Shown here: piece after piece, positions 22,714 to 43,369 of the stretch
Position numbering within the stretch: position 1 is the stretch's first letter
Layout: every line of letters starts with the position of its first letter
DNA from: Acidovorax sp.
GTDB lineage: Bacteria; Pseudomonadota; Gammaproteobacteria; Burkholderiales; Burkholderiaceae_C
Assembly: GCF_046294525.1 (NCBI RefSeq)
Contig: NZ_JBKBKQ010000001.1
Span: 231,263-295,262 of the forward strand
DNA length: 64,000 bases
Direction: 5' to 3'
Program-made: the position numbers and the translations under genes
Notes under the pieces: model-generated
Told to the model about the DNA's origin: nothing
What the model saw: the letters and a program-made list of their open reading frames with translations, nothing else
The model's database searches: none

Positions 22714-22715
22714 GC

Positions 22716-23453: not shown

Positions 23454-23620
23454 AAAAGCCGCGCGATGCCGAGAATCTCCGGCCACTTGCGCTTGTCCGA
23501 GGCGCAGGCGCTAATCAACGCGGTTTGAAACTGAACAGCTATGAAAGTGGTCTTTCACAGCGGCCCGACCTTTAAAGAGTTCTTTCACAGCTTGCCGGAC
23601 GACAAGCTGGGCGTCGCTGA

Positions 23621-23651
23621 CATGTATAGAAATCCGCGTTTTCTATACATG
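23621..23651. promoter_or_regulatory. perfect 12-bp inverted repeat CATGTATAGAAA-N7-TTTCTATACATG (candidate operator upstream of fic)
   Basis: Read directly; a second AAATCCG(C/T)GTTTT motif repeats ~25 bp downstream. Confidence 0.4.
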
Positions 23652-23764
23652 TCGCAGTCCACATGCTTAAAAATCCGTGTTTTTTGTACAGATGCTGGCT
23701 AACATGGTGAAGCCATTGCGTTTTTTCGCCATGTTTCCCCCTCCCCCACTCTGGATGCACCGGC

Positions 23765-24841: not shown

Positions 24842-24921
24842 CCATATGGTGATGGCATCGACAGATCACGATAACTTGTCGATTTTCTTTGTTTTTTTAA
24901 ACATATTCTCCCCATCTGTCG

Positions 24922-27900
24922 ATGGCATCGACACATCCGCCACCTCTCAGCCCCGGACCTGACCGCATGACCGAAGACCAGCTCGAACGCGAAACCCTGG
25001 CCTGGCTGCAGGACGTGGGCTACACCCACATCGCCGGTCCCGACATCGCCCCCGACGGCCCCGCGCCCGAGCGCAGCGACTACCGCCAGGTGCTGCTGGC
25101 AGGCCGCCTGAAGGCAGCGCTGATGCGGCTGAACCCTGCCGTGCCCGTGGTGGCCATCGACGACGCGCTGGCGCAGGTGCAAGACCTGGGCGTGCCCGCG
25201 CTGCTGGCGGCCAACCGACGGTTTCACCGGCTGCTGGTGGCGGGCGTGCCGGTGCAGTACCAGCGCGGCAACGAGACAGTGGGCGACTTCGTGCGCCTGG
25301 TGGACTGGGCTGCGCCCGAGCGCAATGAGTGGCTGGCGGTGAACCAGTTCAGCGTGCGCGGGCCGCGCCACACGCGCCGGCCCGACGTGGTGCTGTTTGT
25401 GAACGGCCTGCCGCTGGTGCTGCTGGAGTTAAAAAACCCCGCCGACCAGGCCGCCAGTGTGTGGAAGGCGTACGACCAGATCCAGACGTACAAAGAGCAG
25501 ATCCCGGACCTGTTTAACACCAACGAGGTGCTGGTGATTTCAGACGGCACCGAGGCACTGCTGGGGTCGCTGAGCGCAAGCGCCGAGCGCTTCATGGCGT
25601 GGCGCACGATTGACGGCGTGGCGCTGGACCCGCTGGGCCAGTTCAACGAGCTGCAGACACTGGTGCGCGGCGTGCTGGCGCCGCAATACCTGCTGGACTA
25701 CCTGCGCTACTTTGTGCTGTTTGAGGACGATGGGCAGCTGGTCAAAAAGATCGCGGGCTACCACCAGTTTCATGCGGTACGCGCCGCCATTGCGCAGGTG
25801 GTGGCTGCTGCCACGCCGGGCAGCGGCGCAGACCCGGCCATCAAGGGCAAGGGCGGCGTGGTGTGGCACACGCAGGGCAGCGGCAAGAGCATCACCATGA
25901 CCTGCTTTGCCGCCCGCGTGATGCAGGAGCCCGCGCTGCAGAACCCCACCATCGTGGTCATCACCGACCGCAACGACCTGGACGGCCAGCTGCTGGGCGT
26001 GTTTGGCCTGGCGCAAGACCTGCTGCGCGAGCAGCCCGTGCAGGCCCGCACCCGGCAAGAGCTGCGCACGCTGCTGGCCAACCGCCCCTCGGGCGGCATT
26101 GTGTTTGCCACCATCCAGAAGTTCATGCCCAGCGAGGACGAAGACAGCTACCCCATGCTGTCGGACCGCCACAACATCGTGGTGATTGCCGACGAGGCGC
26201 ACCGCACGCAGTACGGGTTTGAGGCGCGACTGAAGGTGCGCAAGGCTGATGTGAAGGCCGATGGGAAGGAAGATTTCAAGCCAAATCAGGCTATAGCGCT
26301 TGATACACAAGCGTCACCAGCTACAAATAATGTAGCAAACCCCATCGCCACAGGCAGCGGCACCGCCCCCGCACACCGCGCCGAATTTGCGCCGCCCACC
26401 TACCGGGCAGGCACCGAAGCGAACACAGTGGAACACGCCCGCGAGCATTACCAGGTGGGCTACGCCCAGCACCTGCGCGATGCTCTGCCCAACGCCACCT
26501 TTGTGGCGTTTACCGGCACCCCGGTGAGCGGCACCGACCGCGACACGCGCGCCGTGTTTGGCGACTACATCCACGTGTATGACATGCAGCAGGCCAAGGA
26601 AGACGGCGCCACCGTGGCCATCTACTACGAAAGCCGCATGGTGAAGCTGGGCCTGAAGGCCGACGAGCTGCCCAGCATTGACGCCGAGGTGGACGAGCTG
26701 GCCGAGGACGAAGAAGAAAGCGTGCAGTCGCGCCTGAAAAGCCGCTGGGCGGCGCTGGAGCAGGTGGTGGGCGCCGAGCCCCGCGTGGCGCGCGTGGCGC
26801 AGGACCTGGTGGCGCATTTTGAAGAGCGCAACACCGCCCAGCTCGGCAAGGCCATGGTGGTGGCCATGAGCCGCGACATCTGCGCGCACCTGTACAACGA
26901 GATCGTGCGCCTGCGCCCCGACTGGCACAACGCCGACCCCGAGCTGGGCGCCATCAAGATCGTGATGACCGGCAGCGCCAGCGACAAAGCGCTGCTGCGC
27001 CCGCACATCTACAGCGCGCAGGTGAAAAAGCGGCTGGAAAAGCGCTTCAAAGACCCGGCCGACCCGCTGCGCATCGTGATCGTGCGCGACATGTGGCTGA
27101 CCGGCTTTGACGCGCCCTGCGTACACACCCTGTATGTAGACAAGCCCATGAAGGGCCATAACCTGATGCAGGCCATTGCCCGCGTGAACCGCGTGTTCAA
27201 GGACAAGCAGGGTGGCCTGGTGGTGGACTACATCGGCATTGGCAACGAGCTGAAAGCCGCCATGAAGGAATACACCGCCGCCCAAGGCCGGGGCCGCCCC
27301 ACGGTGGACGCGCACGAGGCCTTCAGCGTGGTGCTGGAAAAGCTGGATGTGCTGCGCGCCCTGCTGCACGGGTTTGACTACAGCGGCTTTCTGACGGGCG
27401 GCCACCGCGTGCTGGCGGGTGCTGCCAACCACGTGCTGGGCCTGCCGCGCCAGGCCGGGCAAGACGGCAAAAAACGGTTTGCCGACACTGCCCTGGCGAT
27501 GAGCCAGGCCTTTACCCTGAGCTGCACACTGGACGAGGCGAAGGGCGTGCGCGAGGAAGTGGCCTTCATGCAAGGCGTCAAGGTCATCCTGACCAAGCGC
27601 GACATCACCGCCAAGCAACGCACCGACGAGCAGCGCGAGCTGGCAGTGCGCCAGATCATCAGCCATGCAGTGGTGTCTGAAAGTGTGGTGGACATCTTTG
27701 ACGCCGTGGGGTTGGAGAAGCCCAACATCGGCCTGCTGGACGAAGGCTTTCTGGCCCAGGTGCGGGCGCTGCCCGAACGCAACCTGGCGGTGGAGTTGCT
27801 GGAGCGACTGCTGGAGGGCGAGATCAAGAGCCGCTTTGCCAGCAACGTGGTGCAAAGCAAAAAGTTCTCGGAGCTGCTGGGCGGCGTGATCGTGCGCTAC

Positions 27901-28296
27901 CAGAACCGCAGCATTGAAACCGCCCAGGTGATGGAAGAACTGCTGGACATGGCCCGCCAATTCCGCGAGGCACATGGTCTGGCCGACAAGCTGGGGCTGA
28001 GCGAAGACGAGGTGCGCTTTTACACCGCGCTGGCCGAGAACGAATCTGCCGTACGCACGCTGAGCGACGACACGCTGAAAAAAATCGCCCACGAACTGAC
28101 CGACAACCTGCGCAAAAACCTGACGGTGGACTGGACCGAGCGCGAGAGCGTGCAAGCCAAGCTGCGCCTGATGGTCAAACGCATCTTGCGCAAGTACAAA
28201 TACCCGCCGGACCTGGAAGCTGCAGCGGTGGAGCTTGTGCTGCAACAAGCGCAGGCATTGGGTGAAGAGTGGAGCGAGCTGGCTGCAGCGGTCTGA
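24922..28296 (+). CDS. hsdR: Type I R-M endonuclease/helicase subunit HsdR
   Basis: SF2 helicase motifs (GSGKS, DEAHRTQ, FTGTP); the start may be the second Met at 24967; it contains an unusually long low-GC insertion between DEAH and the FTGTP motif. Confidence 0.9.
26281..26340 (+). repeat. degenerate in-frame copy C of the ~55-60 bp palindromic repeat inside hsdR
   Basis: CAAATCAGGCTATAGCGCTTGATACACAAGCGTCACCAGCTACAAATAATGTAGC aligns with copy B; there is a local GC dip. Confidence 0.45.
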
Positions 28297-28378
28297 ACAA
28301 ACCGACACAAAAAACACCCTCTGTCGTTTGCCACACACCACGCTTGCAATTGGTGACAAACGAACACATTGACATGAT

Positions 28379-28882
28379 ATGTCGATGCACCTATTCTCCC
28401 GATCCATGCAGGCACACGGACTTTCTCCCGGCCGCCTGCCCCACCCGCACGACGAAGGAGACGCCGTGGCCACTTTGCTGGAACAACTCAACAACCTGGA
28501 CGTGCTGACTTCGGCACTCATGGGCGGTGTGGCGGTGCAGTTGCAGCCGATTGCGGGCGATGTGCCCGTGGTGCAGGTCAGCATTGAGGGGCGCGATGAG
28601 CTGCCCATCTTCGTGACCTGCTCGGACATGCAGATGATCTGCCTGTGCTACCTGTGGACCGATGCCGATGTGCGGCCCGAGCGCCGGGCCGAACTGATGG
28701 AGGCGCTGCTGGACCTGAACCCTTCCGTGCCCCTGTCGGCCTTTGGCCGCGTGGATGGCCGCTTTGTGCTGGTGGGCGCCCTGGCCCGCGCAGCGCGTGC
28801 TGAAGACGTGGCGCACGAGGTGGCCGTGCTCAGCGACAACGCGCTGGATGCGCTGGATGCGCTGGCGGAATTCCTGCATTGA
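28379..28882 (+). CDS. YjfI-like (DUF2170) or YbjN-type chaperone-like protein
   Basis: 167 aa, acidic, lying immediately upstream of a PspA-family gene as in the enterobacterial yjfI-yjfJ arrangement; the family assignment is from memory. Confidence 0.45.
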   Translation: MSMHLFSRSMQAHGLSPGRLPHPHDEGDAVATLLEQLNNLDVLTSALMGGVAVQLQPIAGDVPVVQVSIEGRDELPIFVTCSDMQMICLCYLWTDADVRPERRAELMEALLDLNPSVPLSAFGRVDGRFVLVGALARAARAEDVAHEVAVLSDNALDALDALAEFLH

Positions 28883-28961: not shown

Positions 28962-29723
28962 ATGTCGGTCATCAAGAAACTCGTCACCCTGCTGCGCGGC
29001 AGCGCCCGCGAACTGGGCCAGAGCGTGGTCGATGGCAACGCCACGCGCATTTATGAACAAGAGATCATCGACGCCAAGGCCAGCATCGCCGAAGCGAAGA
29101 CCGAACTCACCGGTGTGATGGCCAAACAGATGCAGACGGCGCGCGACATCGAGCGCATCAAGGGCGACATGCTGCGCCACGAAGACATGGCCGTGCAGGC
29201 GCTGGACAAGGCTAACGAAGGCCTGGCGCTGGAAGTGGCCGAGCGCGTGGCCGGCCTGGAGGCCGAGCTGAACGAGCAGACGCAGGCCCACGCCAGCTAT
29301 GCGATGCAGGTGTCGCGCCTGAAGGACCTGATCCGCAGCGCGGAAGGCCGTGTGCGAGAGCACGAGCGCGAGATCGGCATTGCCAAGACCACCGAGAGCG
29401 TGTACCGCGCCACGCAGAGCATCTCTGAAAGCATCGGCGCCACGGGTTCGCAGCTGACCAGCGCGCGCGATTCGCTGGAGCGCATCAAGAAGCGCCACGA
29501 AGACCTGGCCGACCGCATGGCCGCCGCCGAGCAGCTGGACCAGGAGTTCGGCCACCGCGCGCTGGAGCGCAAGCTGGCAGACGCGGGCATTGGCGACAGC
29601 GACAAGGTGCGTGCCGCCAAGGTGATGGAGCGCCTGCGCGCCCGCCAGGCCGGGGCTGCCGCTGCAACCACCGCCGCCGCCCCCCACGCGCTGCCCTCCC
29701 CCACGCCCACACAGGCCCCATGA
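28962..29723 (+). CDS. PspA/IM30 (ESCRT-III-like) family protein, YjfJ-like
   Basis: 253 aa, all coiled-coil, with a PspA-like N-terminus (MSVIKKLVTLLRGSARELGQSVVD) and an Ala/Pro-rich tail. Confidence 0.8.
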   Translation: MSVIKKLVTLLRGSARELGQSVVDGNATRIYEQEIIDAKASIAEAKTELTGVMAKQMQTARDIERIKGDMLRHEDMAVQALDKANEGLALEVAERVAGLEAELNEQTQAHASYAMQVSRLKDLIRSAEGRVREHEREIGIAKTTESVYRATQSISESIGATGSQLTSARDSLERIKKRHEDLADRMAAAEQLDQEFGHRALERKLADAGIGDSDKVRAAKVMERLRARQAGAAAATTAAAPHALPSPTPTQAP

Positions 29724-30097
29724 GCCCCGCACCGCGCAAGCCCGCGCGGTGGCAGGGCTCCGAGCCCGCTCTGCGCGCCGTCCAGGTGGCGTTTGACGTG
29801 GAAGAAGCCGTGATGGAGGCCATCCGCGTGGCGGCTTTCCATGCCAACGTGTCCACCTCCACGCAGATCCGCAGCGTACTGGACTTGCCCGTGGCGGCCC
29901 GGCCCAAGCGGCCGCGCCTGACGGTGACGCTGGACGCAGCCGACTACGAGTTGCTGGCGCAGCGCTACGGCCTCACACCGGAAGACCGCCTGGGCATCAA
30001 GGAGGCGGCCACGCGCGAGCTGATTGCTTTTGTGCAGCAGCCACCGCGCGCGGCCCGGGCGGGCACCGGCGGCGGCAAGAAGAAAAACAGTCGATAA
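29720..30097 (+). CDS. hypothetical protein with two ribbon-helix-helix-like repeats
   Basis: 125 aa; a beta-alpha-alpha pattern is repeated twice (LRAVQVAFDVEEAVMEAIRV..., RLTVTLDAADYELLAQRYGL...); ATGA overlap with the PspA-like gene. Confidence 0.35.
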   Translation: MSPAPRKPARWQGSEPALRAVQVAFDVEEAVMEAIRVAAFHANVSTSTQIRSVLDLPVAARPKRPRLTVTLDAADYELLAQRYGLTPEDRLGIKEAATRELIAFVQQPPRAARAGTGGGKKKNSR

Positions 30098-30197: not shown

Positions 30198-30842
30198 ATG
30201 TTTGCCAGTCTTCTTGGGGCGGTCTCCGCGTTCCCGACCGCCATCTACACCGTGCTGTTGGGCGTGGTGCTGGTGTATTGGCTGATGGCCATGCTGGGCA
30301 TGGTGGACTTCGAGTCCAGCGGCATCGACGTGGCGATTGACGCCCACGCCGACGCCAGCGTGGACGACCTGGGCACCATTGCCAGCTATGTGGTGGCCTT
30401 CGGCCTGCACGGGGTGCCGTTCTCCATTGTGGTGAGCCTGCTGGTGCTGGTGGGATGGACGCTGTCCTTCCTGGCCGGCGTCACGCTGCTGGCCTGGGTG
30501 CCCACCGACATCCTGCGCTGGGCAGCTGGCGCCGTGGTGCTGGTGGTGACTGCGGCGCTGTCGGTGGTGATCACGGCGCGCATCGTGCGGCCGCTGCGCG
30601 GGCTGTTTGTGCACCACACGGCGCAAAGCAATGCCTCGCTGGTGGGCCAGACCTGCAAGGTGCTGACCGGCGTGGTGGACGAGCGCCAGGGCCGTGCCGA
30701 AGTGGCCCAGCGCGGCGCCAGCATCAACATCCGCGTGTGGTCGCCCAGCCCCAACACCTTGAAGCGCGGCGACGCCGCGCTGATCACCGAATACGACCCG
30801 GGCAGCCACCGCTACCTGGTTGTGCCGCTGCCACCCGCGTGA
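30198..30842 (+). CDS. YqiJ/NfeD-like inner membrane protein (DUF1449-like), flotillin partner
   Basis: 214 aa with N-terminal TM helices and a C-terminal OB-like soluble domain, directly upstream of the flotillin gene as in yqiJ-yqiK. Confidence 0.6.
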   Translation: MFASLLGAVSAFPTAIYTVLLGVVLVYWLMAMLGMVDFESSGIDVAIDAHADASVDDLGTIASYVVAFGLHGVPFSIVVSLLVLVGWTLSFLAGVTLLAWVPTDILRWAAGAVVLVVTAALSVVITARIVRPLRGLFVHHTAQSNASLVGQTCKVLTGVVDERQGRAEVAQRGASINIRVWSPSPNTLKRGDAALITEYDPGSHRYLVVPLPPA

Positions 30843-30937: not shown

Positions 30938-33064
30938 ATGCCGCAATCCTTCATGGTCATCCTGATTGCCGTTGGCATCTTTGTCTTCCTGATCCTGGCG
31001 ATGTTCGCCATGTTCGCGAAGTTCTACCGGAAGGTGGAGCAAGGCCACGCGCTCATCATCAACACCCTGCGCTCCGAGCCCGAAGTCACCTTCACCGGCC
31101 GCATGGTCTACCCCATCATCCACAAGGCCGAGCTGATGGACATCTCGGTCAAGACCATCGAGATCGACCGCTCGGGCGACCAGGGCCTGATCTGCGCGGA
31201 CAACATCCGCGCCGACATCAAGGTGAAGTTCTTCGTGCGGGTGAACAAGACGGCCGAGGACGTGCTGCGCGTGGCGCAAGGCATTGGCTGTGCGCGCGCG
31301 TCCAACCACGAGATTCTGGAAGACCTGTTCTCGGCCAAGTTCTCCGAGGCGCTCAAGACCGTGGGCAAGTCGCTCGACTTCGTGGACCTGTACCAGGCGC
31401 GCGATGCCTTCCGCGACAAGATCATCGAGCAGATCGGCGACGACCTGTCGGGCTATGTGCTGGAAGACGCGGCGATTGACTACCTGGAGCAGACGCCGCT
31501 GTCCAAGCTTGATGCCAACAACATCCTCGACGCGCAGGGCATCAAGAAGATCACCCAACTCACTGCAGTGGAACACGTGGTGACCAATGAGCTGCGCCGC
31601 AACGAGGAAATGCAGATCAAGAAGAAGAACGTGGAAACGCAGGAAGCCCTGCTGGAGCTGGAGCGCCAACAGGCCGACGCCACCGCCCGCCAGGCGCGCG
31701 AAGTGGCCAGCGTGAAGGCGCGCGAAGAAGCCGAAACCGCCAAGGTGCGTGCCGAAGAACACACACGCGCCGAGATGGCGCGCCTGCAGTCCGAACAGTT
31801 GCTGGCCGTGCAGAACGAGAACGTGTTGCGCGAGAAGGAAGTGGCCGAGAACAACCGCAAGCGTGCGGTGGTGATCGAGCAGGAGCGCGTGACCCGCGCG
31901 CAAGACCTGGAAGTGGTGGCGCGCGAGAAGGAAGTGACGCTGCAACGCATTGAAAAAGACAAGGCGGTGGAGGTACAGAAGAAGGCCATTGCCGACGTGG
32001 TGCGCGAACGCATCGTGGTCGAACGCACGGTGGCCGAGCAGGAAGAAGCCATCAAGGAAGTGCGCGAAGTGGCCGAGGCCGACCGCACCCGCAAGGCCGT
32101 AGTCATCGGCGCCGAAGCAGCTGCCGAAGAAAAGGTGATCCTGGAAGTGAAGGCTGCTGAAGCCCAGGAACGCAAGGCGCGCCACAAGGCCGCCGAAGAC
32201 CTGGTGCTGGCCGACGCCCGTCTGAAGGTGGCCGAGCGCGAGGCCGAAGCCAAGAAGCGCGAAGCCGAAGGCATTGAAGCCCTGACCGCCGCGCCCGGCC
32301 TGGCCGATGCCAAGGTGCAGATGGCCAGCGCCAGCGCCAAACTGGCCACCATGGAAGCCGAAGCCAGCGGCAAGGAAAAAATTGGCCGTGCCGAAGCCCA
32401 GGTGACCGAAGCCCAGGCACATGCCGACGCCGTGGGCCTGCGCGCCCGCATGGAAGCTGAAGCCGCCGGCAAGGAAAAGGTCGGCCAGGCCGAAGCCTTG
32501 GTGCGCACCGTGGACGCCGAAGCCCTGGCCAAGATGGGCGACGCCGAAGCGCACAACATCGACGTGAAGTTCAACGCCGAGGCGCGCGGCCTGAAGGAAA
32601 AGTTCGAGGCCATGAAAGCCATGAGCACCGAAACGCGCGAGCACGAGGAGTACCGCATGCGCCTGGAGCGCGCGCACCTCGAAACCCTGAAGCAGATCGA
32701 GGCGCAGCAGCACATCGCCAAGGAACAGGCCGAAGTGCTGGGCGTGGCGCTGAAGAACGCGCGCATCGACATCGTGGGCGGCCAGGGCGACTACTTCGAC
32801 AGCTTTGTGCGTGCGCTGTCCGTTGGCAAGGGCATCGACGCGGCCGTGAACAAAAGCGACACGCTGCAGGTGGCCTTCAAAGACCAGCTCAGCGGCGAGC
32901 GCGACGTGGTGGAAGACGTGAAACAGATCCTGGGCGCTGCAGGCCAGTCGGCAGGCGAGCTGCAGAACCTGAGCGTCTCGGCCCTCATCGCACGGGTGAT
33001 GCAGACCGGCACCGACAGCCAGAAGCAGGCCTTGCAGCAACTGGCACAGAGCTTTCGCAAGTAA
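30938..33064 (+). CDS. flotillin-family protein (SPFH/band 7 domain, YqiK-like) with a long coiled-coil extension
   Basis: N-terminal TM segment then an SPFH domain (...PIIHKAELMDISVKTIEIDRSG...ICADNIRADIKVKFFVRV...), followed by ~450 aa of E/A/K-rich coiled coil; 708 aa. Confidence 0.85.
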   Translation: MPQSFMVILIAVGIFVFLILAMFAMFAKFYRKVEQGHALIINTLRSEPEVTFTGRMVYPIIHKAELMDISVKTIEIDRSGDQGLICADNIRADIKVKFFVRVNKTAEDVLRVAQGIGCARASNHEILEDLFSAKFSEALKTVGKSLDFVDLYQARDAFRDKIIEQIGDDLSGYVLEDAAIDYLEQTPLSKLDANNILDAQGIKKITQLTAVEHVVTNELRRNEEMQIKKKNVETQEALLELERQQADATARQAREVASVKAREEAETAKVRAEEHTRAEMARLQSEQLLAVQNENVLREKEVAENNRKRAVVIEQERVTRAQDLEVVAREKEVTLQRIEKDKAVEVQKKAIADVVRERIVVERTVAEQEEAIKEVREVAEADRTRKAVVIGAEAAAEEKVILEVKAAEAQERKARHKAAEDLVLADARLKVAEREAEAKKREAEGIEALTAAPGLADAKVQMASASAKLATMEAEASGKEKIGRAEAQVTEAQAHADAVGLRARMEAEAAGKEKVGQAEALVRTVDAEALAKMGDAEAHNIDVKFNAEARGLKEKFEAMKAMSTETREHEEYRMRLERAHLETLKQIEAQQHIAKEQAEVLGVALKNARIDIVGGQGDYFDSFVRALSVGKGIDAAVNKSDTLQVAFKDQLSGERDVVEDVKQILGAAGQSAGELQNLSVSALIARVMQTGTDSQKQALQQLAQSFRK

Positions 33065-33175: not shown

Positions 33176-33751
33176 ATGACCCCACGCTTGCATTGCAGCT
33201 GCACCCTGCGCTCCGTGCTTAAAAACGTGGCGCTGGACGAAGGCCTTCCCGCACTGGCCTGTCCCGACTGCGGCGCCGTGCTGCTGAAGATGGACGACTG
33301 GCGCCGCTGGCGCAGCCGCTCGCCTGCGGCAGTGGCGCTCGGTGTTTCCGTAGCCGCTGATGCCGTCTCTGCCGACCCAGGCCGTGCGCGCGCCTGCCCG
33401 GCCTGCACACGGCTCATGGAACGCCTGCCCTTGGACGCCGCCGGTGCCCTGCGCCTGGACCGTTGCAGCACTTGCCAGACGGTGTGGCTGGACCCGGGCG
33501 AATGGCAGGCCCTGGTGGAGCGTGGCCTGGCGTCACAGCTGGACGCTCAGATGTCGGACGGCGGTCAACGCCGCCTGCAGGCCGAACGTCTGCATGCAAG
33601 CCGCATTCAGGCTTTGCGCCAACGCCACGGCGACGCTTGCATGGACGAAGTGCTGCGCATCCGCCGCTGGCTGGCCGAACAGCCGCGCCGTGACGAAGTG
33701 CTGGCGCTGTTGCAGGCGCCCGAAGCGGCAGCGCCCTCACAAAGAAACTGA
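33176..33751 (+). CDS. zinc-ribbon domain protein (hypothetical)
   Basis: 191 aa with two Cys clusters (CPDCG...CPAC...CSTC); GC-rich coding. Confidence 0.45.
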   Translation: MTPRLHCSCTLRSVLKNVALDEGLPALACPDCGAVLLKMDDWRRWRSRSPAAVALGVSVAADAVSADPGRARACPACTRLMERLPLDAAGALRLDRCSTCQTVWLDPGEWQALVERGLASQLDAQMSDGGQRRLQAERLHASRIQALRQRHGDACMDEVLRIRRWLAEQPRRDEVLALLQAPEAAAPSQRN

Positions 33752-33817: not shown

Positions 33818-35227
33818 ATGACCTACAAATCCACCTGGCAATTGCCCGGCCATAACCCGCCAATGCTTGTCCAGCTTTCCATCGTTCCCTATGGCGCCAA
33901 CGGCACAGCTTCTTTCCGAATCTCAAGCTGCGTACTTAAAAAGGACCCGAGTCCCACCATTTTTCCCGGCGGCGAGGTGCTTCAGCTGACGCAGCCGGAC
34001 GGCGACCGAATCGTTGTGCAGAAGTATCTGGACTGGATTGCAGCCAACCCTGGGGTAATTCCGCGGTTCGACAACAACAACGGTCTTTTCCCTGAGTACT
34101 TCTTGGAGCCACAAGGTCGGCGCAAGACAGCCACTGAACTCCTGCTCGACGAAGCCATGTTGCGAGTGGAGCTGGGAGACTACGAGATTGCCCAGACCCT
34201 TCTCAACTCCATCGTTGAGCCTTCAGACTGCATGTTTCACCACACCGTGCTGCGCCGTCTTTATGCCAACTGGGCCACCGACGCTGCTGGCGCACCGGCA
34301 CAAGTGCATGCACAACGGGCAGTGCACCATGCAGAAGTCATCGTTGACATCTATCGCAAGATGGAGTCGGTGCATGAATACCCTGACAGATATGTTTGCT
34401 ACTACTTCGGTGACTACAGCACCGCCGGCTCTCAAGTCTCCAGCGCATGCGCGACCTTGGTGAGACATCGGTTACAGCAGCGGCAATTCCAAGCTGCGCT
34501 GGAAATCGCCGCATACGGAATCGCCGCAAATCGCTGGGACAGCGACTTGCGTGAACTGCAGATTCGCGCCCTGATGGCTATGGGCCGCAATGAGGAGGTT
34601 TGGCCGATATACGCCCTAAATCATCGCGGTATCGGCCCCATGCCGGAGGTAACCGAAACGGAAGGCTATCGCGCCTACATACGCGCGCAGTCTGAAGAAG
34701 CGCAGACCCAAGAGAAAAAGCGCCGCGCCAGCGTCGTCTTGCGCTATCACGATAGCCCTCTCCTCACCGACACAGAGCAGGCTGCATGGAAGGCACGGTA
34801 TCTGAATCTGCCGCAGAACTTTCTGTCCTGGGTCTCCAGCGGCCAGCGTACGCATCTGAAGGGCAGCGTGGAAACGGACGAGTACGAATACCGTCTGTTC
34901 AACCTGCAACAAAGCCAAGAATGGCACACCGACTTCATGGGGTGGCTCAATCTGCACGCAAAAAGCAGCCCAGACTTTCATGCGGAGATTTGGCAACACA
35001 TCCACGCAAGCGGCATTGATCCCGAACGCATGACTCCCATCCTAGGTGATACACACACGCCAGATGGCTTTCTGGTGCGATGCGACGGCGGGCCCGGAGA
35101 GTATGGCGCCGTCTACTTCTGGAGCCATGAGGAACTGCCAGTGTTCGAAAAAATCGCTGACAGCGCCCAAGACCTAATGCCGTGGCTTGCGACCGCAATA
35201 AGAGAAGGCAAGCCATTCATTTTGTAA
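33818..35227 (+). CDS. hypothetical protein with C-terminal SUKH-1 (SMI1/KNR4) immunity-like domain
   Basis: 469 aa; the C-terminal ~130 aa carry the SUKH-1 hallmarks LPQNFLSWV ... DGGPGEYGAVYFWSHEELPVFEKIADSAQDLMPWL; the gene is markedly lower in GC than its flanks. Confidence 0.5.
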   Translation: MTYKSTWQLPGHNPPMLVQLSIVPYGANGTASFRISSCVLKKDPSPTIFPGGEVLQLTQPDGDRIVVQKYLDWIAANPGVIPRFDNNNGLFPEYFLEPQGRRKTATELLLDEAMLRVELGDYEIAQTLLNSIVEPSDCMFHHTVLRRLYANWATDAAGAPAQVHAQRAVHHAEVIVDIYRKMESVHEYPDRYVCYYFGDYSTAGSQVSSACATLVRHRLQQRQFQAALEIAAYGIAANRWDSDLRELQIRALMAMGRNEEVWPIYALNHRGIGPMPEVTETEGYRAYIRAQSEEAQTQEKKRRASVVLRYHDSPLLTDTEQAAWKARYLNLPQNFLSWVSSGQRTHLKGSVETDEYEYRLFNLQQSQEWHTDFMGWLNLHAKSSPDFHAEIWQHIHASGIDPERMTPILGDTHTPDGFLVRCDGGPGEYGAVYFWSHEELPVFEKIADSAQDLMPWLATAIREGKPFIL

Positions 35228-35313: not shown

Positions 35314-38300
35314 ATGACCTCCATGTCCGAAACGCACGATGACGCCATCGACACCAGCGTGGCCGAAAGCAGCAGCTATGAGTTGCTGAAGAAACGCCTG
35401 GAAGCCCAGGGCGACACGCTGTTGTCCAAAGCACAGGCGCTCAACGCGGCGCGCATTGGCCAGTTCGGCCAGCGCGACCAGCAACTGCTGATGCGTTTGC
35501 GTGCGCGCACCGAGCACAGCTGCGTGGCGCGTGACCTGGCCTACATCGGCGGCAACCGGCTGCTGTTTGGCTACAACGTGTTCATGGGCCTCAAGCGCGA
35601 AACGCGGGTGGAGGACGTTTTCGCGCTGTACGAGTTGGCGCACCACGATGCGACCCGTGAAGAAGCGGGCGCTCCCGACAGCGACGAGCTGGTGCAGGTG
35701 CCGATGGCGGGCGGCTTTCTGGACGACCCACGTTTTGTGGCCGACTTCAACGAGCTCTACACCTACTACAAGCAGGCCACGCTGCAGTTGCTGCGCCCCA
35801 CGCCCGAATTTTTGTTGGCCGCGTTTCAGATCGGCCAGCAGGCGCAGGACATTCGAGTGTTTCGCTGGCGGCGTGAAAGCGATGGCTCGCTGAAGTACGT
35901 GGACAACCGCGGCGAGCGCGACCTGGCGCCGCCGCCCAGCCACGATTTCAGCTGGACGCCGCTGACACGCGAACACCATGTGGGCGGCGCGCACCCGCAC
36001 ATCAATGTGCTGGACACCATCTTTGTGGAAACCACCGGTGGCACGCTGACGGTGAAGGTGGAGAACAACACCGAGTCTGGCCTGGGCATCTACGATGAGC
36101 CCGTGGAAGACGCCAACCAGGCGCTGGGCGATGCCGAGTTTGCCTACGCCAAGCTGGGCCTGTTGATCCTGCTGCAGGTGCGCCCCTACCGCGAGAGCAC
36201 CACGCGCTACCTGGTGTTCAACCAGCGCACGCGGCAGGTGGTGCGCATCGACGCCATTGGCGCATCGTGCATGCAGCTGCCGGAGGACCACGGCATCATC
36301 TTCCCCGGCGGGTACTACCTGCAGTCGGGCGAGACCAAGCGCTTTGACCTGCCGCCCGAGCTGACCGAGCAGCTGCGCTATACGCGCATGAAGCGCTCGC
36401 CGAACGGGGAAGACGTGGCCTACATCTTCTACGGCACGGTGCCCCCGCCGCAGGGCAGCCCGGCCACGCTGGATGCGGGCTGCTATGCCATCTTCACCTA
36501 CAACCTCATCGACAAGTCGCTCGCGCCGCCCGTCCTGGCCGATGGGTACAGCACCTTCCCGGACGGGCGCATGCTGGTGTTCCAGGCCGCGCGCGGCGAG
36601 GCCGCGCGCGTACACCCTATGCAGCTGTGGCGCACACCCTTTGCCACCGAGGAACACGCCAGCCGCCAGCCCGCCGGCACGGGCTTCTTTGGCCGCGTGG
36701 GCAATGCCGACCTGGTGCGCGGCATCTCGGACCTGCTGGGCATTGCCCGCATGGTGCGCGAGCAGGTGCCCACGCGCACTGCGTACGAAGACCTGATACG
36801 CCAGTGCCAGCGCGCACGCGACGCCTACTTCTGGCTGGACGCCGGCGAGGTGCAGAACGCTGCGGCTGACCTGTCGGCCATCGAGCAGGCCGCGCAGGCC
36901 ACGCTGGGCGAGTTTGAAAAGGTTGAGAGCATCCGCCAGGACACGGCCCGCGCATTGCACAAGGCCGAAGGCCAGCAGCGCGAGCTGATGACCGCCATTG
37001 CCAGCCAGATGTGGCGCAGCCCCAGCGACTTTGTGCAGGCGCTCAACCGCCTGCGCCAGCGCCAGGGCGAGCTGCACCTGCTGCGCGAGCTGCGCTATGC
37101 CGACCTGGCCGCCGTGGATGCCATGGCCGCGCAGCTCACGGCCGAGCAGCAGCGCGTGGGCGAACGCGCGCTGCAGTTCCTGTCCGACGAAAAAGCCTTT
37201 GACGGCCAGCGCCAGGCCCTGACCAAGGTGGCCACCACCCTGCCCCAGGCCGCCACCGCCGCGCAACTGGCCGAGCAGTTGGACACGCTGGACGCCGAAG
37301 CCGCCAGCCTGGACCTGCTAAGCGAACAACTGGGCAACCTGCCCGGCGGCGATGCCGTGCAGCGCACCACCATCCTCGACCGCATTGCGCTGCTGTACGC
37401 TGACATCAACCGCCTGCGCGCCGATGCCCGCGCGCGCCGCCGCAACCTGGGTGCGGCCGAGCAGCGGGCGGAGTTTGGCGCGCAGTTCAAGCTGTTCGGC
37501 CAGGCCGTGGAAAACGCGCTGGAGCTGTCGGACACGCCCGAAAAGTGCGACGAGGCGCTGACCCGCCTGCTGGCGCAGCTGGAAGACATCGAAGGCCGCT
37601 TTGCCGAGCAGGAAGAGTTTCTGGCCGACATCGCCACCCAGCGCGAAAGCGTGTACGAGGCCCTGTCGGCCCGTCGCCAAAGCCTGGTGGATGCACAGCA
37701 GCGCCGCGCCAAGGCCCTGGCCGATGCGGCCGGGCGCGTGCTGGACGGCGTGCCGCGCCGCATTGCCGGCTTTGGCGAGCTGGCCCAGGTGCACAGCTAC
37801 TTCGCGTCCGACCCCATGCTGACCAAGCTGCGCGAGCAGGTGGCCGAGCTGCGCCGCCTGGGCGCGGCCGTGGCGGCCGACGACATCGACACGCGCCTGA
37901 AGACCGCCCGCGACCAGGCCGTGCGCGCGGTGCGCGACCAGCGGGAGCTCTCGGCCGGCGCCGAGGGCGGCCTGAAGCTGGGCAGCCACACCTTCACCAT
38001 CAACAAGCAGCCGCTAGACCTGACCCTCGTCGCCCACGGCAATGGACTGGCCTGGCAGATCACCGGCACCGACTACCTGGCCCCGGCGCACGACGCGCGG
38101 CTGCAGGTGCTGCGCCCCTTCTGGCAGCAGGCCCTGGTGTCGGAGACGCCGCAGTTGGCACGCGCCGAATACCTGGCCGCCGAATGGCTGGAAGCCCAGC
38201 AGCGCGGCGAGGCCGAGCCCGGCTGGAGCGAGCTGCTGGTGCAGCTGGCCGAGCATGCGCGCACGGATGGCATCGATGGCACCGAGCCCACCACCCCGCC

Positions 38301-40944
38301 CGCCGTGCTGCTCGATTCACTACGCCGCTTTGCCGCCAGCCGCTATCAAGAGGGCTACCAGCGCGGCATCCACGACGACGACGCCCTGGCCATCGTGCGC
38401 GTGCTCGCGCCCATCCAGGATGCGGCCGGGCTGCTGGTCTATGGCCCATCCGAGCGCGCGCTGGCCAAGCTCTACTGGCACCTGGGCCTGCGCGAGGAGA
38501 GCCGCAACTCCCTGGCCCGCCGCGCTCGCAGCGCCCAGCACATCGCGCAGCTGTTTTCACAGACCACGCTGCGGGACACGCTGGAGGCCGAGGCTGCGCA
38601 GGGTCTGCGCCAGTTTGTGGAGCAGCACCCCGTGCTGGCCGATGAGTGGCTGCCGGAGCTGGCCCAAGCACTGGGAACCGACAGCGCGGAAGGCGGGAGC
38701 GACGAGGCTTTGCTGCGCACGCTTGTGGAAGAAGCCAGCGCCTACCTGGTGCGCGAGCTGGCCCACACCGACATCGGAACGGCCGAGCTGGCCTCCGTCA
38801 CGCCGCAATGGGTGATCAGCAACACGGGCGCGGACCTGGTGCAGGCCCTGCAGCGCGCGCTGGACCATGGGGGCCTGGCCAGCGCCTGGCAGCGCGACCT
38901 GGCGGCCGCCGAGCCGCTGGAGCGCTGGCGCCTCGCGCGCGGCTGGCTGCGCGCGTTTGCCGCATCGCAGGCGGATGCCGACGGTGCCACGCCAGCCCTC
39001 GCCTGGATTGACGATGCCGCCACGGCGCTCACCTTCCAGGGTACGCGCCGCCGCATCAACGCCACGCTGGACGCGCAGGTGGCCGGGCTGCGCAGCGAGC
39101 ACATGCGCATCCAGCACGGCGCGCTGGCGTTCAACCTCAACGACTTTCGCCGGCGCGTGCGCCATCACCGCAGCCACGCGGTGCGCGGCTTTTTGCAGTT
39201 GCAGGCCCTGCGGCACGAGCTGCTGGTGCAAGAAAAAGCGCGCCTGCACCTGGCCCAGTTCCAGGCCAAACCGCTGGCCACCTTTGTGCGCAACCGGCTC
39301 ATCGACGAGGTGTACCTGCCGCTGGTGGGCAACAACCTGGCCAAGCAACTGGGCGCCGCAGGCGAGAGCGCACGCACCGACCGCATGGGCATGCTGCTGC
39401 TGATCTCGCCGCCCGGCTATGGCAAGACCACGCTGATGGAATATGTAGCCAACCGCTTGGGCCTGGTGTTTGTGCGCATCAACTGCCCGGCCCTGGGCCA
39501 TGGCGTGACCAGCATCGACCCCAGCACCGCGCCCAACAGCGCGGCGCGGCAAGAGCTGGAAAAGCTCAACCTGGGCCTGGCTATGGGCAGCAACGTGATG
39601 CTGTACCTGGACGATATCCAGCACACGCACCCCGAGTTTTTGCAGAAGTTCATCGCTCTGGCCGACGGCACCCGCCGCATTGAAGGCGTGTGGCAGGGCC
39701 AGCCCCGCACCTGGGACATGCGCGGCAAGCGCTTTGCCATCGTGATGGCGGGCAACCCGTACACCGAATCGGGCGACGTGTTCCGCATCCCCGACATGCT
39801 GGCCAACCGCGCCGACATCTACAACCTGGGCGACGTGCTCTCGGGCCGCGAGGCCGTGTTTGCGCTGTCGTACATCGAAAACAGCCTGACCGCCCACCCC
39901 GTGACCCAGCCCCTGGCCGCGCGCGAACCGCAGGACGTGCACGTGCTGGTGCGCATGGCCCAGGGCGAGGCCATCGACACCAGCAGCTTTGCCCACCCCT
40001 ACAGCGCGGTGGAGCTGCAGGAACTCAAGGGCCTGCTGCAGCGCCTGTTCAAAGTGCGCGACGTGCTGCTGAAGGTGAACCTGGCCTACATCGCCTCGGC
40101 CGCGCAGGACGACCGCTACCGCGAGGCGCCGCCCTTCCGCCTGCAAGGCAGCTACCGCAACATGGCGCGCCTGGCGCCGCAGGTCACGCCGCTGATGCAG
40201 GACGACGAGCTCGATGCGCTGCTGCGCGACCACTACCGCGGCGAGGCGCAGACTCTGACCACTGGCGCCGAAGAAAACTTGCTGCAGCTGGCGCAGCTGA
40301 TCGGCCGCCCCACGCCCCAGGAGCAAGAGCGCTGGGACCAGATCCGGGGCGACTACCAGCGCCAGCGCAAGATGGGCGGCGCCGAGGACGACCCGAGCGT
40401 GCGCGTGACGCGTGGGCTGCTGGACATTGCCCGCAGCGTGGAAGCCCTGCAGCCCCGCCAGGCCACCGAGCAGCTCACGCAGCAGATCGCAAAGCCGTTG
40501 GCCGCTATTGCGCAGCAGCTGGCCCAGCCCTCGCCCGCGCAGCAGGCCCAGGCCGCGGCGTTGGACCGCATCGAACCCGCGCTGAACGCCCTGGCGGAGC
40601 TGGCCCAGCACCTGCAAAAGGGCACCACCCAGACCCAGGCGCAGATGCGCGCCAGCCTGGACGCCACGGCAGAGGCGCTGCTAGCCCTGCAGGCCAGCAC
40701 CCAGGTCCTGCACGCCCACAGCGACCAGGCCCAGAGCCAGCGCATGGTGGACGCACTGCTGTCGCTGTCGGTCACCTACCGCCAGCTCATCATGCCGCTG
40801 GTGCGGGCGGTGGAAAGCCGCGTGGGGGCCGACGCCAAGATGCACCAGGAGGTGGAACGACTGGAGGGCATGATCGACAACCTGCGCGAGGCTCCGCCAT
40901 CAAGGGAAGCGCCGCCACCAAAGAAGAAGCCCCATCAGACTTAG
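35314..40944 (+). CDS. giant (1876 aa) uncharacterised protein with C-terminal-proximal MoxR/midasin-like AAA+ ATPase module
   Basis: Walker A LLISPPGYGKTT, Walker B VMLYLDDIQH and sensor-1 IVMAGNPYTESGD at about residues 1370-1480; roughly 700 aa of coiled-coil-like Ala/Leu/Gln/Arg-rich sequence precede it, and an N-terminal ~500-aa globular region; the frame stays open across 5.6 kb of high-GC DNA. Confidence 0.8.
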   Translation: MTSMSETHDDAIDTSVAESSSYELLKKRLEAQGDTLLSKAQALNAARIGQFGQRDQQLLMRLRARTEHSCVARDLAYIGGNRLLFGYNVFMGLKRETRVEDVFALYELAHHDATREEAGAPDSDELVQVPMAGGFLDDPRFVADFNELYTYYKQATLQLLRPTPEFLLAAFQIGQQAQDIRVFRWRRESDGSLKYVDNRGERDLAPPPSHDFSWTPLTREHHVGGAHPHINVLDTIFVETTGGTLTVKVENNTESGLGIYDEPVEDANQALGDAEFAYAKLGLLILLQVRPYRESTTRYLVFNQRTRQVVRIDAIGASCMQLPEDHGIIFPGGYYLQSGETKRFDLPPELTEQLRYTRMKRSPNGEDVAYIFYGTVPPPQGSPATLDAGCYAIFTYNLIDKSLAPPVLADGYSTFPDGRMLVFQAARGEAARVHPMQLWRTPFATEEHASRQPAGTGFFGRVGNADLVRGISDLLGIARMVREQVPTRTAYEDLIRQCQRARDAYFWLDAGEVQNAAADLSAIEQAAQATLGEFEKVESIRQDTARALHKAEGQQRELMTAIASQMWRSPSDFVQALNRLRQRQGELHLLRELRYADLAAVDAMAAQLTAEQQRVGERALQFLSDEKAFDGQRQALTKVATTLPQAATAAQLAEQLDTLDAEAASLDLLSEQLGNLPGGDAVQRTTILDRIALLYADINRLRADARARRRNLGAAEQRAEFGAQFKLFGQAVENALELSDTPEKCDEALTRLLAQLEDIEGRFAEQEEFLADIATQRESVYEALSARRQSLVDAQQRRAKALADAAGRVLDGVPRRIAGFGELAQVHSYFASDPMLTKLREQVAELRRLGAAVAADDIDTRLKTARDQAVRAVRDQRELSAGAEGGLKLGSHTFTINKQPLDLTLVAHGNGLAWQITGTDYLAPAHDARLQVLRPFWQQALVSETPQLARAEYLAAEWLEAQQRGEAEPGWSELLVQLAEHARTDGIDGTEPTTPPAVLLDSLRRFAASRYQEGYQRGIHDDDALAIVRVLAPIQDAAGLLVYGPSERALAKLYWHLGLREESRNSLARRARSAQHIAQLFSQTTLRDTLEAEAAQGLRQFVEQHPVLADEWLPELAQALGTDSAEGGSDEALLRTLVEEASAYLVRELAHTDIGTAELASVTPQWVISNTGADLVQALQRALDHGGLASAWQRDLAAAEPLERWRLARGWLRAFAASQADADGATPALAWIDDAATALTFQGTRRRINATLDAQVAGLRSEHMRIQHGALAFNLNDFRRRVRHHRSHAVRGFLQLQALRHELLVQEKARLHLAQFQAKPLATFVRNRLIDEVYLPLVGNNLAKQLGAAGESARTDRMGMLLLISPPGYGKTTLMEYVANRLGLVFVRINCPALGHGVTSIDPSTAPNSAARQELEKLNLGLAMGSNVMLYLDDIQHTHPEFLQKFIALADGTRRIEGVWQGQPRTWDMRGKRFAIVMAGNPYTESGDVFRIPDMLANRADIYNLGDVLSGREAVFALSYIENSLTAHPVTQPLAAREPQDVHVLVRMAQGEAIDTSSFAHPYSAVELQELKGLLQRLFKVRDVLLKVNLAYIASAAQDDRYREAPPFRLQGSYRNMARLAPQVTPLMQDDELDALLRDHYRGEAQTLTTGAEENLLQLAQLIGRPTPQEQERWDQIRGDYQRQRKMGGAEDDPSVRVTRGLLDIARSVEALQPRQATEQLTQQIAKPLAAIAQQLAQPSPAQQAQAAALDRIEPALNALAELAQHLQKGTTQTQAQMRASLDATAEALLALQASTQVLHAHSDQAQSQRMVDALLSLSVTYRQLIMPLVRAVESRVGADAKMHQEVERLEGMIDNLREAPPSREAPPPKKKPHQT

Positions 40945-40969
40945 GCGATGTCGTCGCGCACGGTTCTAC

Positions 40970-41185
40970 TTACTTCAGCCAGCTGCGCTTGGGCCGGGGC
41001 TGCACCGTGATATCCACCGCCTGGCGCACAGTGGGCTGGCCGCTGGCGGGGTCGGTGTCTACCACATCTTCCAGATCAATGTCCTTTACATCGGAGTCGG
41101 TGGACTCTTCCAGCTCTTCCAGAACGGCGTTGACCTTGCGTTCGGCCTGCTGGACTGCGGCCTCGGAAACAGGGGGGTTGCCCAT
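40970..41185 (-). CDS. small acidic hypothetical protein (71 aa)
   Basis: GC3-rich codon usage; convergent with the giant gene and 26 bp from its stop. Confidence 0.3.
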   Translation of the reverse strand: MGNPPVSEAAVQQAERKVNAVLEELEESTDSDVKDIDLEDVVDTDPASGQPTVRQAVDITVQPRPKRSWLK

Positions 41186-41301
41186 GGCGGTGGCTCCTCA
41201 GGTTGGCGGATATCCCCCATTCTTGCCGCAGTACAGCCTGTGCGCTGTCAGCCGATGCCGGCGGACAGGGGTAGGCGGCGGGCTCGCTCAGGCTCCCGCG
41301 T

Positions 41302-42850: not shown

Positions 42851-43369
42851 ATGCAATACCGCCGCGCCTTCACCCCGGGCGCCACTTTGTTCTTCACCGT
42901 CGTCACCCACGACCGCCGCCCCCTCTTGCAAAGCGAGGACGCCGTGGAAACGCTGCGCGCCGCTTTCCGCAGGGTGCGCTCGGCGCGACCCTTCGTGATC
43001 GACGCCATGGTGGTGCTGCCGGACCATGTGCATTGCATCTGGACACTGCCGCCAGACGACGCGGATTTTGCGACCCGGTGGCGGCTGATCAAGACTTGGT
43101 TCACCAAGCACGGCCCTGCGAACCAGCGAGGCCCGCAGAATGCCGCCCGCGCCGCCAAGCAGGAGCAAGCCGTTTGGCAACACCGCTACTGCGAGCATCG
43201 AATCCGGGACGAAGAGGACTACGCCCGGCATGTGGACTACATCCACTACAACCCGGTCAAGCACGGGTGGGCGAAATCTGCGGGGGGCATGGCCGTATTC
43301 GAGTTTTGGGCGGTATGTGGCGGCGGGGATTTATCCGCCCGATTGGGGGCACTCCGCGCCAGATCTTGA
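42851..43369 (+). CDS. REP-associated tyrosine transposase (RAYT, IS200/IS605 TnpA-like)
   Basis: 172 aa with an HUH motif (HVHCIW), a catalytic Tyr region (HYNPVKHGW) and an N-terminus (YRRAFTPGATLFFT) typical of IS200-like Y1 transposases; flanked by REPs. Confidence 0.8.
   Translation: MQYRRAFTPGATLFFTVVTHDRRPLLQSEDAVETLRAAFRRVRSARPFVIDAMVVLPDHVHCIWTLPPDDADFATRWRLIKTWFTKHGPANQRGPQNAARAAKQEQAVWQHRYCEHRIRDEEDYARHVDYIHYNPVKHGWAKSAGGMAVFEFWAVCGGGDLSARLGALRARS

Follow-up and report, generated by a model that had tools for sequence, protein, structure and literature searches.

The closest described relatives of the system studied here are an operon reported in a computational survey and a gene cluster of Pseudomonas aeruginosa. 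The operon was described by Ravi et al. in 2024, who proposed roles in membrane dynamics and as a chaperone and noted abbreviated versions without PspA (PMC11237479). In P. aeruginosa, bacA-F are carried on one transcript, the "biofilm-associated cluster", and the BacE protein (PA14_16190) was 8.9-fold more abundant in a bacA mutant (PMC10948618). PA14_16160 encodes a short NfeD protein, and PA14_16180 encodes the SPFH protein PaFlo3 (PMC13086221). Moreover, PA3728 was recurrently mutated in cystic fibrosis isolates (PMC8190622). Here, a related operon was analysed in a 64,000-nucleotide stretch of an Acidovorax sp. genome (contig NZ_JBKBKQ010000001.1, positions 231,263 to 295,262), hereafter called the window. 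The subject is the last gene of this operon, which encodes a giant AAA+ ATPase of 1876 amino acids. The giant protein is judged, with somewhat better than even confidence, to remodel assemblies of flotillin and PspA with energy from ATP. The giant gene almost always adjoined a flotillin-like gene, and for this reason the SPFH scaffold is its probable substrate.

The window protein is probably the ortholog of BacE (PA3728/PA14_16190), as suggested by synteny, by other Pseudomonas species and by published gene descriptions. Three Pseudomonas loci (L029, L030 and L039) had the order DUF2170, PspA, NfeD, SPFH, giant gene and PLD, and the published descriptions of the P. aeruginosa genes fit this order (PMC8855297). 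The Pseudomonas giant orthologs were of full length and 47% identical to the window protein. The window operon shared five of the six gene types of bacABCDEF in the same order (DUF2170, PspA, short NfeD, SPFH and giant ATPase). It differed in having no PLD gene (bacF) and in carrying extra genes for a 125-amino-acid protein, a zinc-ribbon protein and a foreign protein of 469 amino acids. On the Pseudomonas BacA equivalog model (cut-off 300), the DUF2170 protein of L030 scored 344 bits and that of the window 40.5 bits. Since the PLD gene was missing and the DUF2170 protein fell far below this cut-off, the two operons are homologous and do not form an equivalog set. Between 28379 and 40944 every gene lay on the forward strand, with gaps of 66-111 nt and one 4-nt overlap. 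The genes were as follows.

28379-28882, + strand: DUF2170/YjfI protein, CesT-like and BacA-like (PF09938, E 2.2e-26).
28962-29723, + strand: PspA/IM30 protein, YjfJ/BacB-like (PF04012, E 5.1e-33).
29720-30097, + strand: 125-amino-acid protein without a Pfam family match; its first 4 nt overlap the end of the PspA gene.
30198-30842, + strand: 214-amino-acid multi-pass membrane protein with a C-terminal soluble domain, of the YqiJ/short-NfeD/BacC type, as seen from hydrophobic segments in the translation.
30938-33064, + strand: 708-amino-acid SPFH/Band-7 protein, PaFlo3/BacD-like (Band_7 on the N-terminal 231 residues).
33176-33751, + strand: 191-amino-acid zinc-ribbon protein (Zn_ribbon_TFIIB, E 1.5e-6), an accessory found between the SPFH and giant genes in some Burkholderiales.
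33818-35227, + strand: open reading frame (ORF) of 469 amino acids with a weak TPR match only.
35314-40944, + strand: giant ATPase gene, 1876 amino acids from ATG to stop, the last operon gene in this genome.

The conservation of this context was evaluated by tblastn of each window neighbour against 83 fetched loci, which with the window gave 84 sequences. The hosts sampled included Beta- and Gammaproteobacteria, Myxococcota, Longimicrobium, Amycolatopsis and a Clostridia metagenome-assembled genome, and the plasmid and chromid records added Deinococcus, Streptomyces and Hymenobacter. The SPFH gene was present in 80 of the 84 sequences, directly upstream of the giant gene and on the same strand. 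In three of the four sequences without it, the giant gene was close to or at the end of its contig; the remaining one, a Sorangium locus (L071), was not of this kind. An NfeD/YqiJ-like gene stood upstream of the SPFH gene in 75 sequences. The obligate unit was therefore composed of the NfeD-like gene, the SPFH gene and the giant ATPase gene. DUF2170 was found in 39 sequences and PspA in 37, the CesT-like/PspA pair thus occurring in about 45%, and a PLDc_2 gene followed the giant gene in 22 (about 26%). The PspA/CesT pair and the PLD gene are optional add-ons to the three-gene module. Wherever they occurred, the SPFH, NfeD-like and PspA genes were upstream of the giant gene and on its strand. 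The gene of the 125-amino-acid protein was found in 22 sequences, mostly Betaproteobacteria with operons of the betaproteobacterial type, and that of the zinc-ribbon protein in 18. The connection of the giant gene with flotillin and PspA genes, which had been noticed in a first-pass annotation made from the window alone, proved strong by these counts.

The same gene order recurred in two plasmid-borne clusters. The order on a Hymenobacter plasmid was 'chaperone Tir', PspA, DUF1449, hypothetical protein and giant gene. DUF1449 is the YqiJ family, and the gene so annotated on this plasmid corresponds to that of the 214-amino-acid membrane protein in the window, as does the short-NfeD gene PA14_16160 in P. 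aeruginosa. On pQBR103, a P. fluorescens megaplasmid (L084, NC_009444.1, 86431-103326), the NfeD-like, SPFH and giant genes came directly after polyamine genes of the yjfK/L/M/C type (DUF2491, DUF350, DUF1190 and the glutathionylspermidine synthase family). No DUF2170 or PspA gene was annotated within the 6 kb upstream. Both classes of PspA-linked operon that Ravi et al. distinguished are joined in the pQBR103 cluster. Gene joints were seen in metagenomic proteins: a C-terminal flotillin segment was in frame with the giant ATPase in P0339 and P0369, and an NfeD/ClpP-like protease was joined to the giant protein in P0320. These three proteins might be Rosetta-stone fusions, but they look more like truncated, frameshifted or chimeric gene calls and were not used as evidence.

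The ATPase module carried the features listed below.

39295-39843, + strand: AAA+ alpha/beta core, residues 1328-1510.
39409-39432, + strand: Walker A, PPGYGKTT, residues 1366-1373.
39601-39624, + strand: Walker B, LYLDDIQH, residues 1430-1437, which reads DD and not DE.
Residues 1455-1468: predicted pre-sensor-1 beta-hairpin in the AlphaFold2 model, with strands 1455-1460 and 1463-1468 just before beta4.
39748-39759, + strand: sensor 1, AGNP, residues 1479-1482.
39799-39816, + strand: LANRAD, with R1499 as the putative Arg finger.
39844-40413, + strand: lid and C-terminal helical domain, residues 1511-1700, with high-pLDDT helices and very high conservation.
40144-40164, + strand: invariant motif QGSYRNM, residues 1611-1617, with the sensor-2-like Arg R1615.

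The motifs stood where the first-pass annotation had placed them, with LLISPPGYGKTT at residues 1362-1373 and the Walker B and AGNP motifs at the positions above. Walker A, Walker B (as DD), N1481, PDMLANRAD with R1499, and QGSYRNM with R1615 were invariant in 52-86 diverse homologs. R1499 occupies what may be read as the Arg-finger position of MoxR-like proteins, and R1615 is a putative sensor-2-like residue. The module had the attributes of the AAA+ superfamily (Walker A and B, a polar sensor 1, an Arg-finger candidate and a helical lid), and its sole deviation was the DD of Walker B. The chain contained a single, contiguous module with the AAA+ fold. Structural comparison of this module gave figures of 13.3 for CbbQ, 13.1 for midasin and 13.0 for NorQ, followed by 12.8 for ClpA, 12.7 for the dynein motor and 9.5 for Vps4. 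CbbQ was aligned over 243 of its 267 residues at 3.4 Å, indicating that the core and the lid superposed together. The closest structural neighbours were therefore clade-7 proteins, which carry a helix-2 insert and a pre-sensor-1 hairpin. At the helix-2 position, the AlphaFold2 model had a short helix (residues 1391-1394), a conserved 14-residue loop and then alpha2, and no hairpin was predicted. The beta2-alpha2 loop had no aromatic pore loop. When PDB chains were searched by sequence, both the giant protein alone and a profile of 52 AAA-module sequences found similarity around the P-loop only (Rix7, p97 and RuvB), and no clade could be assigned in this way. AAA_3 was absent among the Pfam matches. 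No VWA or MIDAS domain was detected in any operon protein of the window or of Variovorax, Eleftheria, pQBR103 and Hymenobacter, in agreement with the first-pass annotation. That annotation had also called the protein MoxR/midasin-like; the fold neighbours and the pre-sensor-1 hairpin bore this out, but membership of MoxR proper did not hold and the model showed no helix-2 hairpin. The predicted structure supports an ATPase of the MoxR/midasin/dynein type by fold that lies outside MoxR proper.

The remaining parts of the giant protein were explored with two AlphaFold2 models built on an 86-sequence alignment (Burkholderiales, Acidobacteriota and Myxococcota). The model of residues 1-900 had a predicted local distance difference test (pLDDT) value of 87.5 and a predicted TM score (pTM) of 0.66; for residues 861-1876 (md25e6acc9280) the values were 84.3 and 0.75. 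A conservation and indel profile was calculated over 80 family members. The following regions were distinguished outside the ATPase module, from the AlphaFold2 models unless other evidence is named.

Residues 1-20: predicted disordered N-terminus.
35374-36831, + strand: DUF3686, residues 36-506, within a stretch that comprises a helix (residues 21-51), a beta-propeller and the first helices (PF12458, AlphaFold2 with DSSP, Foldseek).
36832-37956, + strand: fixed-length helical region, residues 507-881 (AlphaFold2 with DSSP; block pLDDT 68-97, mostly 80-95).
37192-37446, + strand: DUF7902 inside the helical region, residues 627-711 (PF25472).
37957-39246, + strand: middle region, residues 882-1311 (pLDDT mostly >90, conservation profile, invariant motifs).
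Residues 886-924: predicted small beta subdomain.
Residues 950-1240: predicted helical domain with variable loops at 961-990 and 1081-1170.
Residues 1245-1274: second small beta element in the model.
Residues 1275-1311: predicted long linker helix running into the ATPase.
40414-40941, + strand: variable Ala/Gln/Pro-rich tail, residues 1701-1876 (pLDDT 40-70, gap fraction up to 0.87).

The N-terminal ~500 residues had been put down as a domain of unknown fold. Structure prediction and Foldseek comparison, the route that the first-pass annotation had suggested, gave a confidently modelled beta-propeller of about six or seven blades at residues ~57-440, in addition to the DUF3686 match. The Foldseek matches of the propeller were Elp1, IFT-A, nucleoporins, the clathrin terminal domain, EED, PON1 and sialidases. 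The TM scores were low (0.08-0.16); thus, these matches indicate the fold class only, and homology of the N-terminal half to IFT-A, nucleoporin or clathrin was rejected despite their high Foldseek rank. Residues 457-881 were modelled as helices of 15-58 residues with short loops between them, and in this model the helices probably pack together. No indels occurred between residues 391 and 960, and residues 1-960 were conserved as a whole. Variability was concentrated in residues 961-1230 and in the tail, and the ATPase module at residues 1320-1700 was the best conserved part. The middle region also contained the invariant motif RYQEGYxxGxHDxDA at residues 1010-1024. The ~700 residues that had been read as a coiled coil were thus replaced by helices that are probably packed, small beta elements and a helical domain, with block pLDDT mostly 80-97 and a fixed length. 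From the AlphaFold2 layout and the absence of indels, a single long coiled coil was excluded in favour of a length-constrained folded region. The Gln-rich tail of the first-pass annotation exists, but as an Ala/Gln-rich segment of the last ~170 residues and not of ~300, and the ATPase module extends to about residue 1700. Residues ~1711-1876 contained 18% Ala and 14% Gln, with low-confidence helices and many indels among homologs. The overall architecture agreed with the wording "AAA+ fused to coiled-coil and beta-propeller" of Ravi et al. (PMC11237479).

The giant gene is a genuine coding sequence. Its GC contents at the three codon positions were 0.73/0.45/0.89 (GC3 0.89), a coding-like pattern for this sequence of 65-70% GC. 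More than 4,600 matches at E<=1e-5 were found among 8,000 candidates scored from 5.8 billion proteins searched, and query coverage was 91-100% in all 120 homologs listed. The closest named organisms among the matches listed were Xenophilus and other Comamonadaceae, at 82-84% identity. At least 563 further relatives turned up when one genome of each GTDB species was scanned. The family was spread over at least seven phyla, including Proteobacteria, Myxococcota, Acidobacteriota, Actinomycetota, Bacteroidota and Deinococcota. Thousands of homologs with near-full coverage thus rule out a high-GC artefact, which the first-pass annotation had named as a possible refutation.

PF12458 (DUF3686) matched residues 36-506 with E 4.5e-176 and 586 bits (cut-off 25), and PF25472 (DUF7902) matched residues 627-711 with E 1.4e-20 and 73.7 bits (cut-off 26). 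AAA and AAA_5 gave weak matches at residues 1361-1487, at 27.6 bits each (cut-offs 21.2 and 22). By these profile matches, the giant protein is a member of the DUF3686 + DUF7902 + AAA Pfam family, which is experimentally uncharacterised. NCBIfam and PADLOC gave nothing meaningful for it. A HMMER search with residues 1-520 against 1.84 billion representatives gave 228 clusters at E<=1e-30. Full-length members of the DUF3686 family had 1590-2036 amino acids, with DUF3686 N-terminal in every case, and the shorter matches looked like fragments. This size range and the constant position of DUF3686 indicate that the architecture is the family norm and no oddity of this gene. The first-pass annotation had taken the placement of the ATPase as atypical; this did not hold, and neither did novelty, as the same layout is invariant in a known Pfam family and the operon is already in the literature. 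The family is known computationally and the window gene adds a member to it, so the novelty of the gene is limited. The NCBI product name of the family is 'DNA repair ATPase', with wording taken from the Pfam description. A search of a literature library found no paper that mentions DUF3686 or PF12458, indicating that this name has no experimental basis, and no biochemical or structural study of the giant ATPase. The profile searches proposed in the first-pass annotation thus led to a known family, but an uncharacterised one whose 'DNA repair' label is unsupported. No transmembrane segment was found in the giant protein: the maximum 19-residue Kyte-Doolittle value was 1.7, inside a confidently folded domain. 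The protein is thus probably soluble and cytoplasmic.

A working model of the system can be proposed as follows. The YqiJ/short-NfeD protein, a transmembrane-anchored SPFH/flotillin-like scaffold and the giant AAA+ protein would form a three-gene membrane module, which the CesT-like/PspA pair would extend in the window operon, as in ~45% of the sequences. The AAA+ modules would form a ring, as in related AAA+ proteins. The propeller and the helical arms may bind the cytoplasmic flotillin assembly and, in systems with PspA, its polymers as well. Hydrolysis of ATP would then drive the assembly, opening or disassembly of the scaffold during envelope stress. The action would be analogous in function to that of Vps4 on ESCRT-III, and the pairing of an SPFH cage with an AAA+ protein to that of HflK/C with FtsH. 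Such pairings of SPFH cages with AAA+ machines recur, HflK/C and FtsH being one example. This reading is supported by the invariant catalytic motifs, the propeller, the rigidly conserved helical region and the near-obligatory SPFH/NfeD linkage. The roles proposed by Ravi et al., the joint transcript of bacA-F, the rise of BacE in the bacA mutant and the induction of PA3728-PA3732 by phage also speak for it. Furthermore, according to a 2025 review, a Vps4-like ATPase for bacterial ESCRT-III/PspA polymers is not known (PMC7619361), which makes the giant family a natural candidate for that role.

Several points weigh against this remodelling role. The putative motor action on the flotillin/PspA scaffolds is drawn from gene context. 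Walker B has an invariant Asp in place of the expected catalytic Glu, so that the protein may hydrolyse ATP slowly or work as a switch. The lack of an aromatic pore loop in beta2-alpha2 gives no indication of a threading mechanism. MoxR relatives normally depend on a VWA adaptor, which the operon does not encode. PspA was missing in more than half of the 84 sequences. Mutants of the P. aeruginosa SPFH gene paFlo3 had mild phenotypes, with biofilm about 20% lower (PMC13086221). A more specific form of the model is rather unlikely, namely that the giant protein is an 'uncoating' motor for flotillin cages. It would be a single-module, ring-forming relative of midasin and dynein whose helical region serves as a lever or linker and whose propeller grips the SPFH/PspA lattice. 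If true, the giant protein would supply the function that Vps4 has and that is so far missing for the turnover of membrane scaffolds in bacteria, and its N-terminal half of propeller and helices would be a true element of the membrane-coat kind.

Other roles can be considered for the giant protein. CbbQ acts on Rubisco and NorQ on NorB, and by these precedents the giant protein could be a MoxR-style maturation or activation chaperone for one client (PLD/BacF or a microdomain membrane protein), with flotillin as the platform and not the substrate. The closest structures of the module are indeed the MoxR chaperones CbbQ and NorQ, and a PLDc_2 gene followed the giant gene in 22 sequences. Client proteins are also reported to be stabilised by flotillin microdomains (PMC11222466). 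However, no VWA/MIDAS adaptor occurred in any operon variant, and the PLD gene was missing in about three quarters of the sequences, including the window, whereas the SPFH gene was nearly universal. A dedicated client chaperone is thus unlikely.

The invariant DD of Walker B would also suit an ATP-gated structural scaffold, in which nucleotide binding controls the oligomerisation of a propeller-helix coat element and little mechanical work is done. The best Foldseek matches of the N-terminal half were coat-like proteins (IFT-A, nucleoporins and clathrin), but at the very low TM scores given above. The strict conservation of sensor 1, the putative Arg finger and the sensor-2-like Arg argues for hydrolysis, and a purely structural function appears quite unlikely.

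It is very unlikely that the giant protein is the ATPase component of a system for phage defence or abortive infection, in which membrane damage would be sensed via flotillin and PspA and the PLD protein would act as a nuclease or phospholipase effector. The PLD protein resembles NucT, DISARM DrmC and DpdK (E 1e-10 to 1e-13, well below the family cut-offs), PA3728-PA3732 are induced by phage infection in P. aeruginosa (PMC12041424), and the window operon adjoins a type I restriction-modification (R-M) system with a Fic gene. In opposition to this, PADLOC gave no meaningful matches, the PLD gene is facultative and absent from the window operon, and hsdM and hsdR were found in none of the 83 related loci. 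A defence-island context was therefore rejected as a conserved feature, and the anti-phage role was weakened because the R-M island is an insertion specific to the window. Finally, a DNA-repair or SMC-like ATPase, for which only the product name used by Pfam and NCBI and a weak P-loop similarity to RuvB would speak, is extremely improbable, given an AAA+ fold without an ABC/SMC head, a RuvB NCBIfam score of 18 bits against cut-offs of 282-299, a membrane-protein gene context in every phylum sampled and the lack of any paper on DUF3686/PF12458 in the library searched.

The partner genes of the window operon were also inspected. The 708-amino-acid SPFH protein had one N-terminal hydrophobic helix (putatively transmembrane), the SPFH/Band-7 domain and a long charged helical region. 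At full length it had no Pfam, NCBIfam or PDB sequence match, and the trimmed N-terminal 231 residues matched Band_7 with E 2.6e-10 and 41 bits (cut-off 23.6). The full-length protein was probably missed through the composition filter of HMMER, which would reject the charged helical region, and this effect could leave the flotillin subfamily systematically under-annotated. No Pfam flotillin domain was found on its C-terminal 173 residues; a flotillin domain was reported by Ravi et al. from profile-profile searches (PMC11237479). The 214-amino-acid membrane protein had no Pfam match. The 125-amino-acid protein showed two ribbon-helix-helix-like repeats by eye and may be a local regulator. The 469-amino-acid ORF had no tblastn match in the 83 related loci and occurred in the window only. 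The GC content of the 34-36 kb block was 0.587, compared with ~0.69 in the following blocks, and neither a target-site duplication nor terminal repeats were found around the ORF. It is probably a recent foreign insertion and not part of the system.

A sigma-70-like promoter (TTGACA, 17 nt, TATTCT) was found at 28369-28397, a span that includes the first ATG of the DUF2170 ORF. The Pfam match of this ORF begins at residue 49 and the Variovorax homolog has 138 amino acids; hence, the true start codon is probably downstream. No convincing sigma-54 promoter like that of P. aeruginosa bacA was found upstream of the operon, and the 50 sigma-54 matches in the whole window were about as many as the 58 expected by chance. 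Neither a stable hairpin nor an intrinsic terminator was found after the giant gene. In Variovorax, Eleftheria and Pseudomonas (15252-16762 in locus L001), the giant gene was followed by a PLDc_2 gene (NucT/DrmC-like, BacF-type) and a gene of ~260 amino acids with a weak CorA-like match; both were absent downstream of the giant gene in the window (40945-41300 inspected). Instead, the minus strand carried a convergent acidic ORF of 71 amino acids (40970-41185), and the purine-rich GGAG stretch ahead of it could be a ribosome-binding site.

In the surroundings of the operon, the type I R-M system (hsdM, hsdS and hsdR) occupied 18994-28296 on the + strand with a GC content of 0.56-0.65, and a DUF3800 gene and a Fic/SoFic-like gene stood between hsdS and hsdR. 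The closest syntenic relative (L006) had the order TamB, operon, EamA/AsnC without the R-M island. As TamB abuts the operon in this relative, the R-M region of the window is an inserted island. TamA (Omp85/POTRA) and TamB (1476 amino acids) lay directly upstream of the island at 12494-18858 on the + strand, with a GC content of up to 0.73-0.74. A canonical MoxR-VWA pair on the + strand, unrelated to the giant ATPase, was composed of an AAA_5 ATPase (9445-10539) and a CoxE-like VWA protein (11177-12364), with a GNAT acetyltransferase gene at 10556-11158. Just downstream of the AsnC-family regulator, a 172-amino-acid homolog of IS200-like Y1 transposases was encoded at 42851-43369 on the + strand (PF01797, E 1.4e-6); it may be a REP-associated tyrosine transposase.

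Little is understood of what bacterial flotillins and non-canonical PspA systems do. The giant family is the only ATPase consistently encoded with the flotillin/NfeD pair, and it is genetically tractable as bacE in P. aeruginosa. The results new to the literature are an ATPase of the MoxR/midasin/dynein type without a VWA partner, a 'coiled coil' that is in fact a folded helical region of invariant length, and a Walker B that reads DD invariantly. The database name was moreover shown to be unsupported.

Compared with SMC and Rad50 proteins, the giant ATPase has a contiguous AAA+ module instead of an ABC head split by an antiparallel coiled coil, and it has no context of DNA metabolism; JetC and LmuB gave only weak coiled-coil matches to it (E>1e-3). 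Unlike midasin/Rea1 and the dynein heavy chain, which have six concatenated AAA+ modules, it has one module per chain, and it lacks their MIDAS domain, stalk and microtubule-binding domain. It differs from the MoxR chaperones CbbQ, NorQ and RavA in having no VWA/MIDAS partner, ~1300 extra N-terminal residues and the DD of Walker B. The AAA_3 match is likewise missing, that of AAA_5 is barely over the threshold, and the AAA-module profile reaches classical AAA proteins and RuvB through the P-loop only. With respect to Vps4 and the classical clade, the giant protein did not show the set of marks that defines them, in which a MIT domain at the N-terminus is combined with an aromatic pore loop 1 and the second region of homology. 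The likeness to Vps4/ESCRT-III and to FtsH/HflK/C is a functional analogy, in which an AAA+ machine is coupled genetically or physically to a polymer of the PspA/ESCRT-III type or to an SPFH cage.

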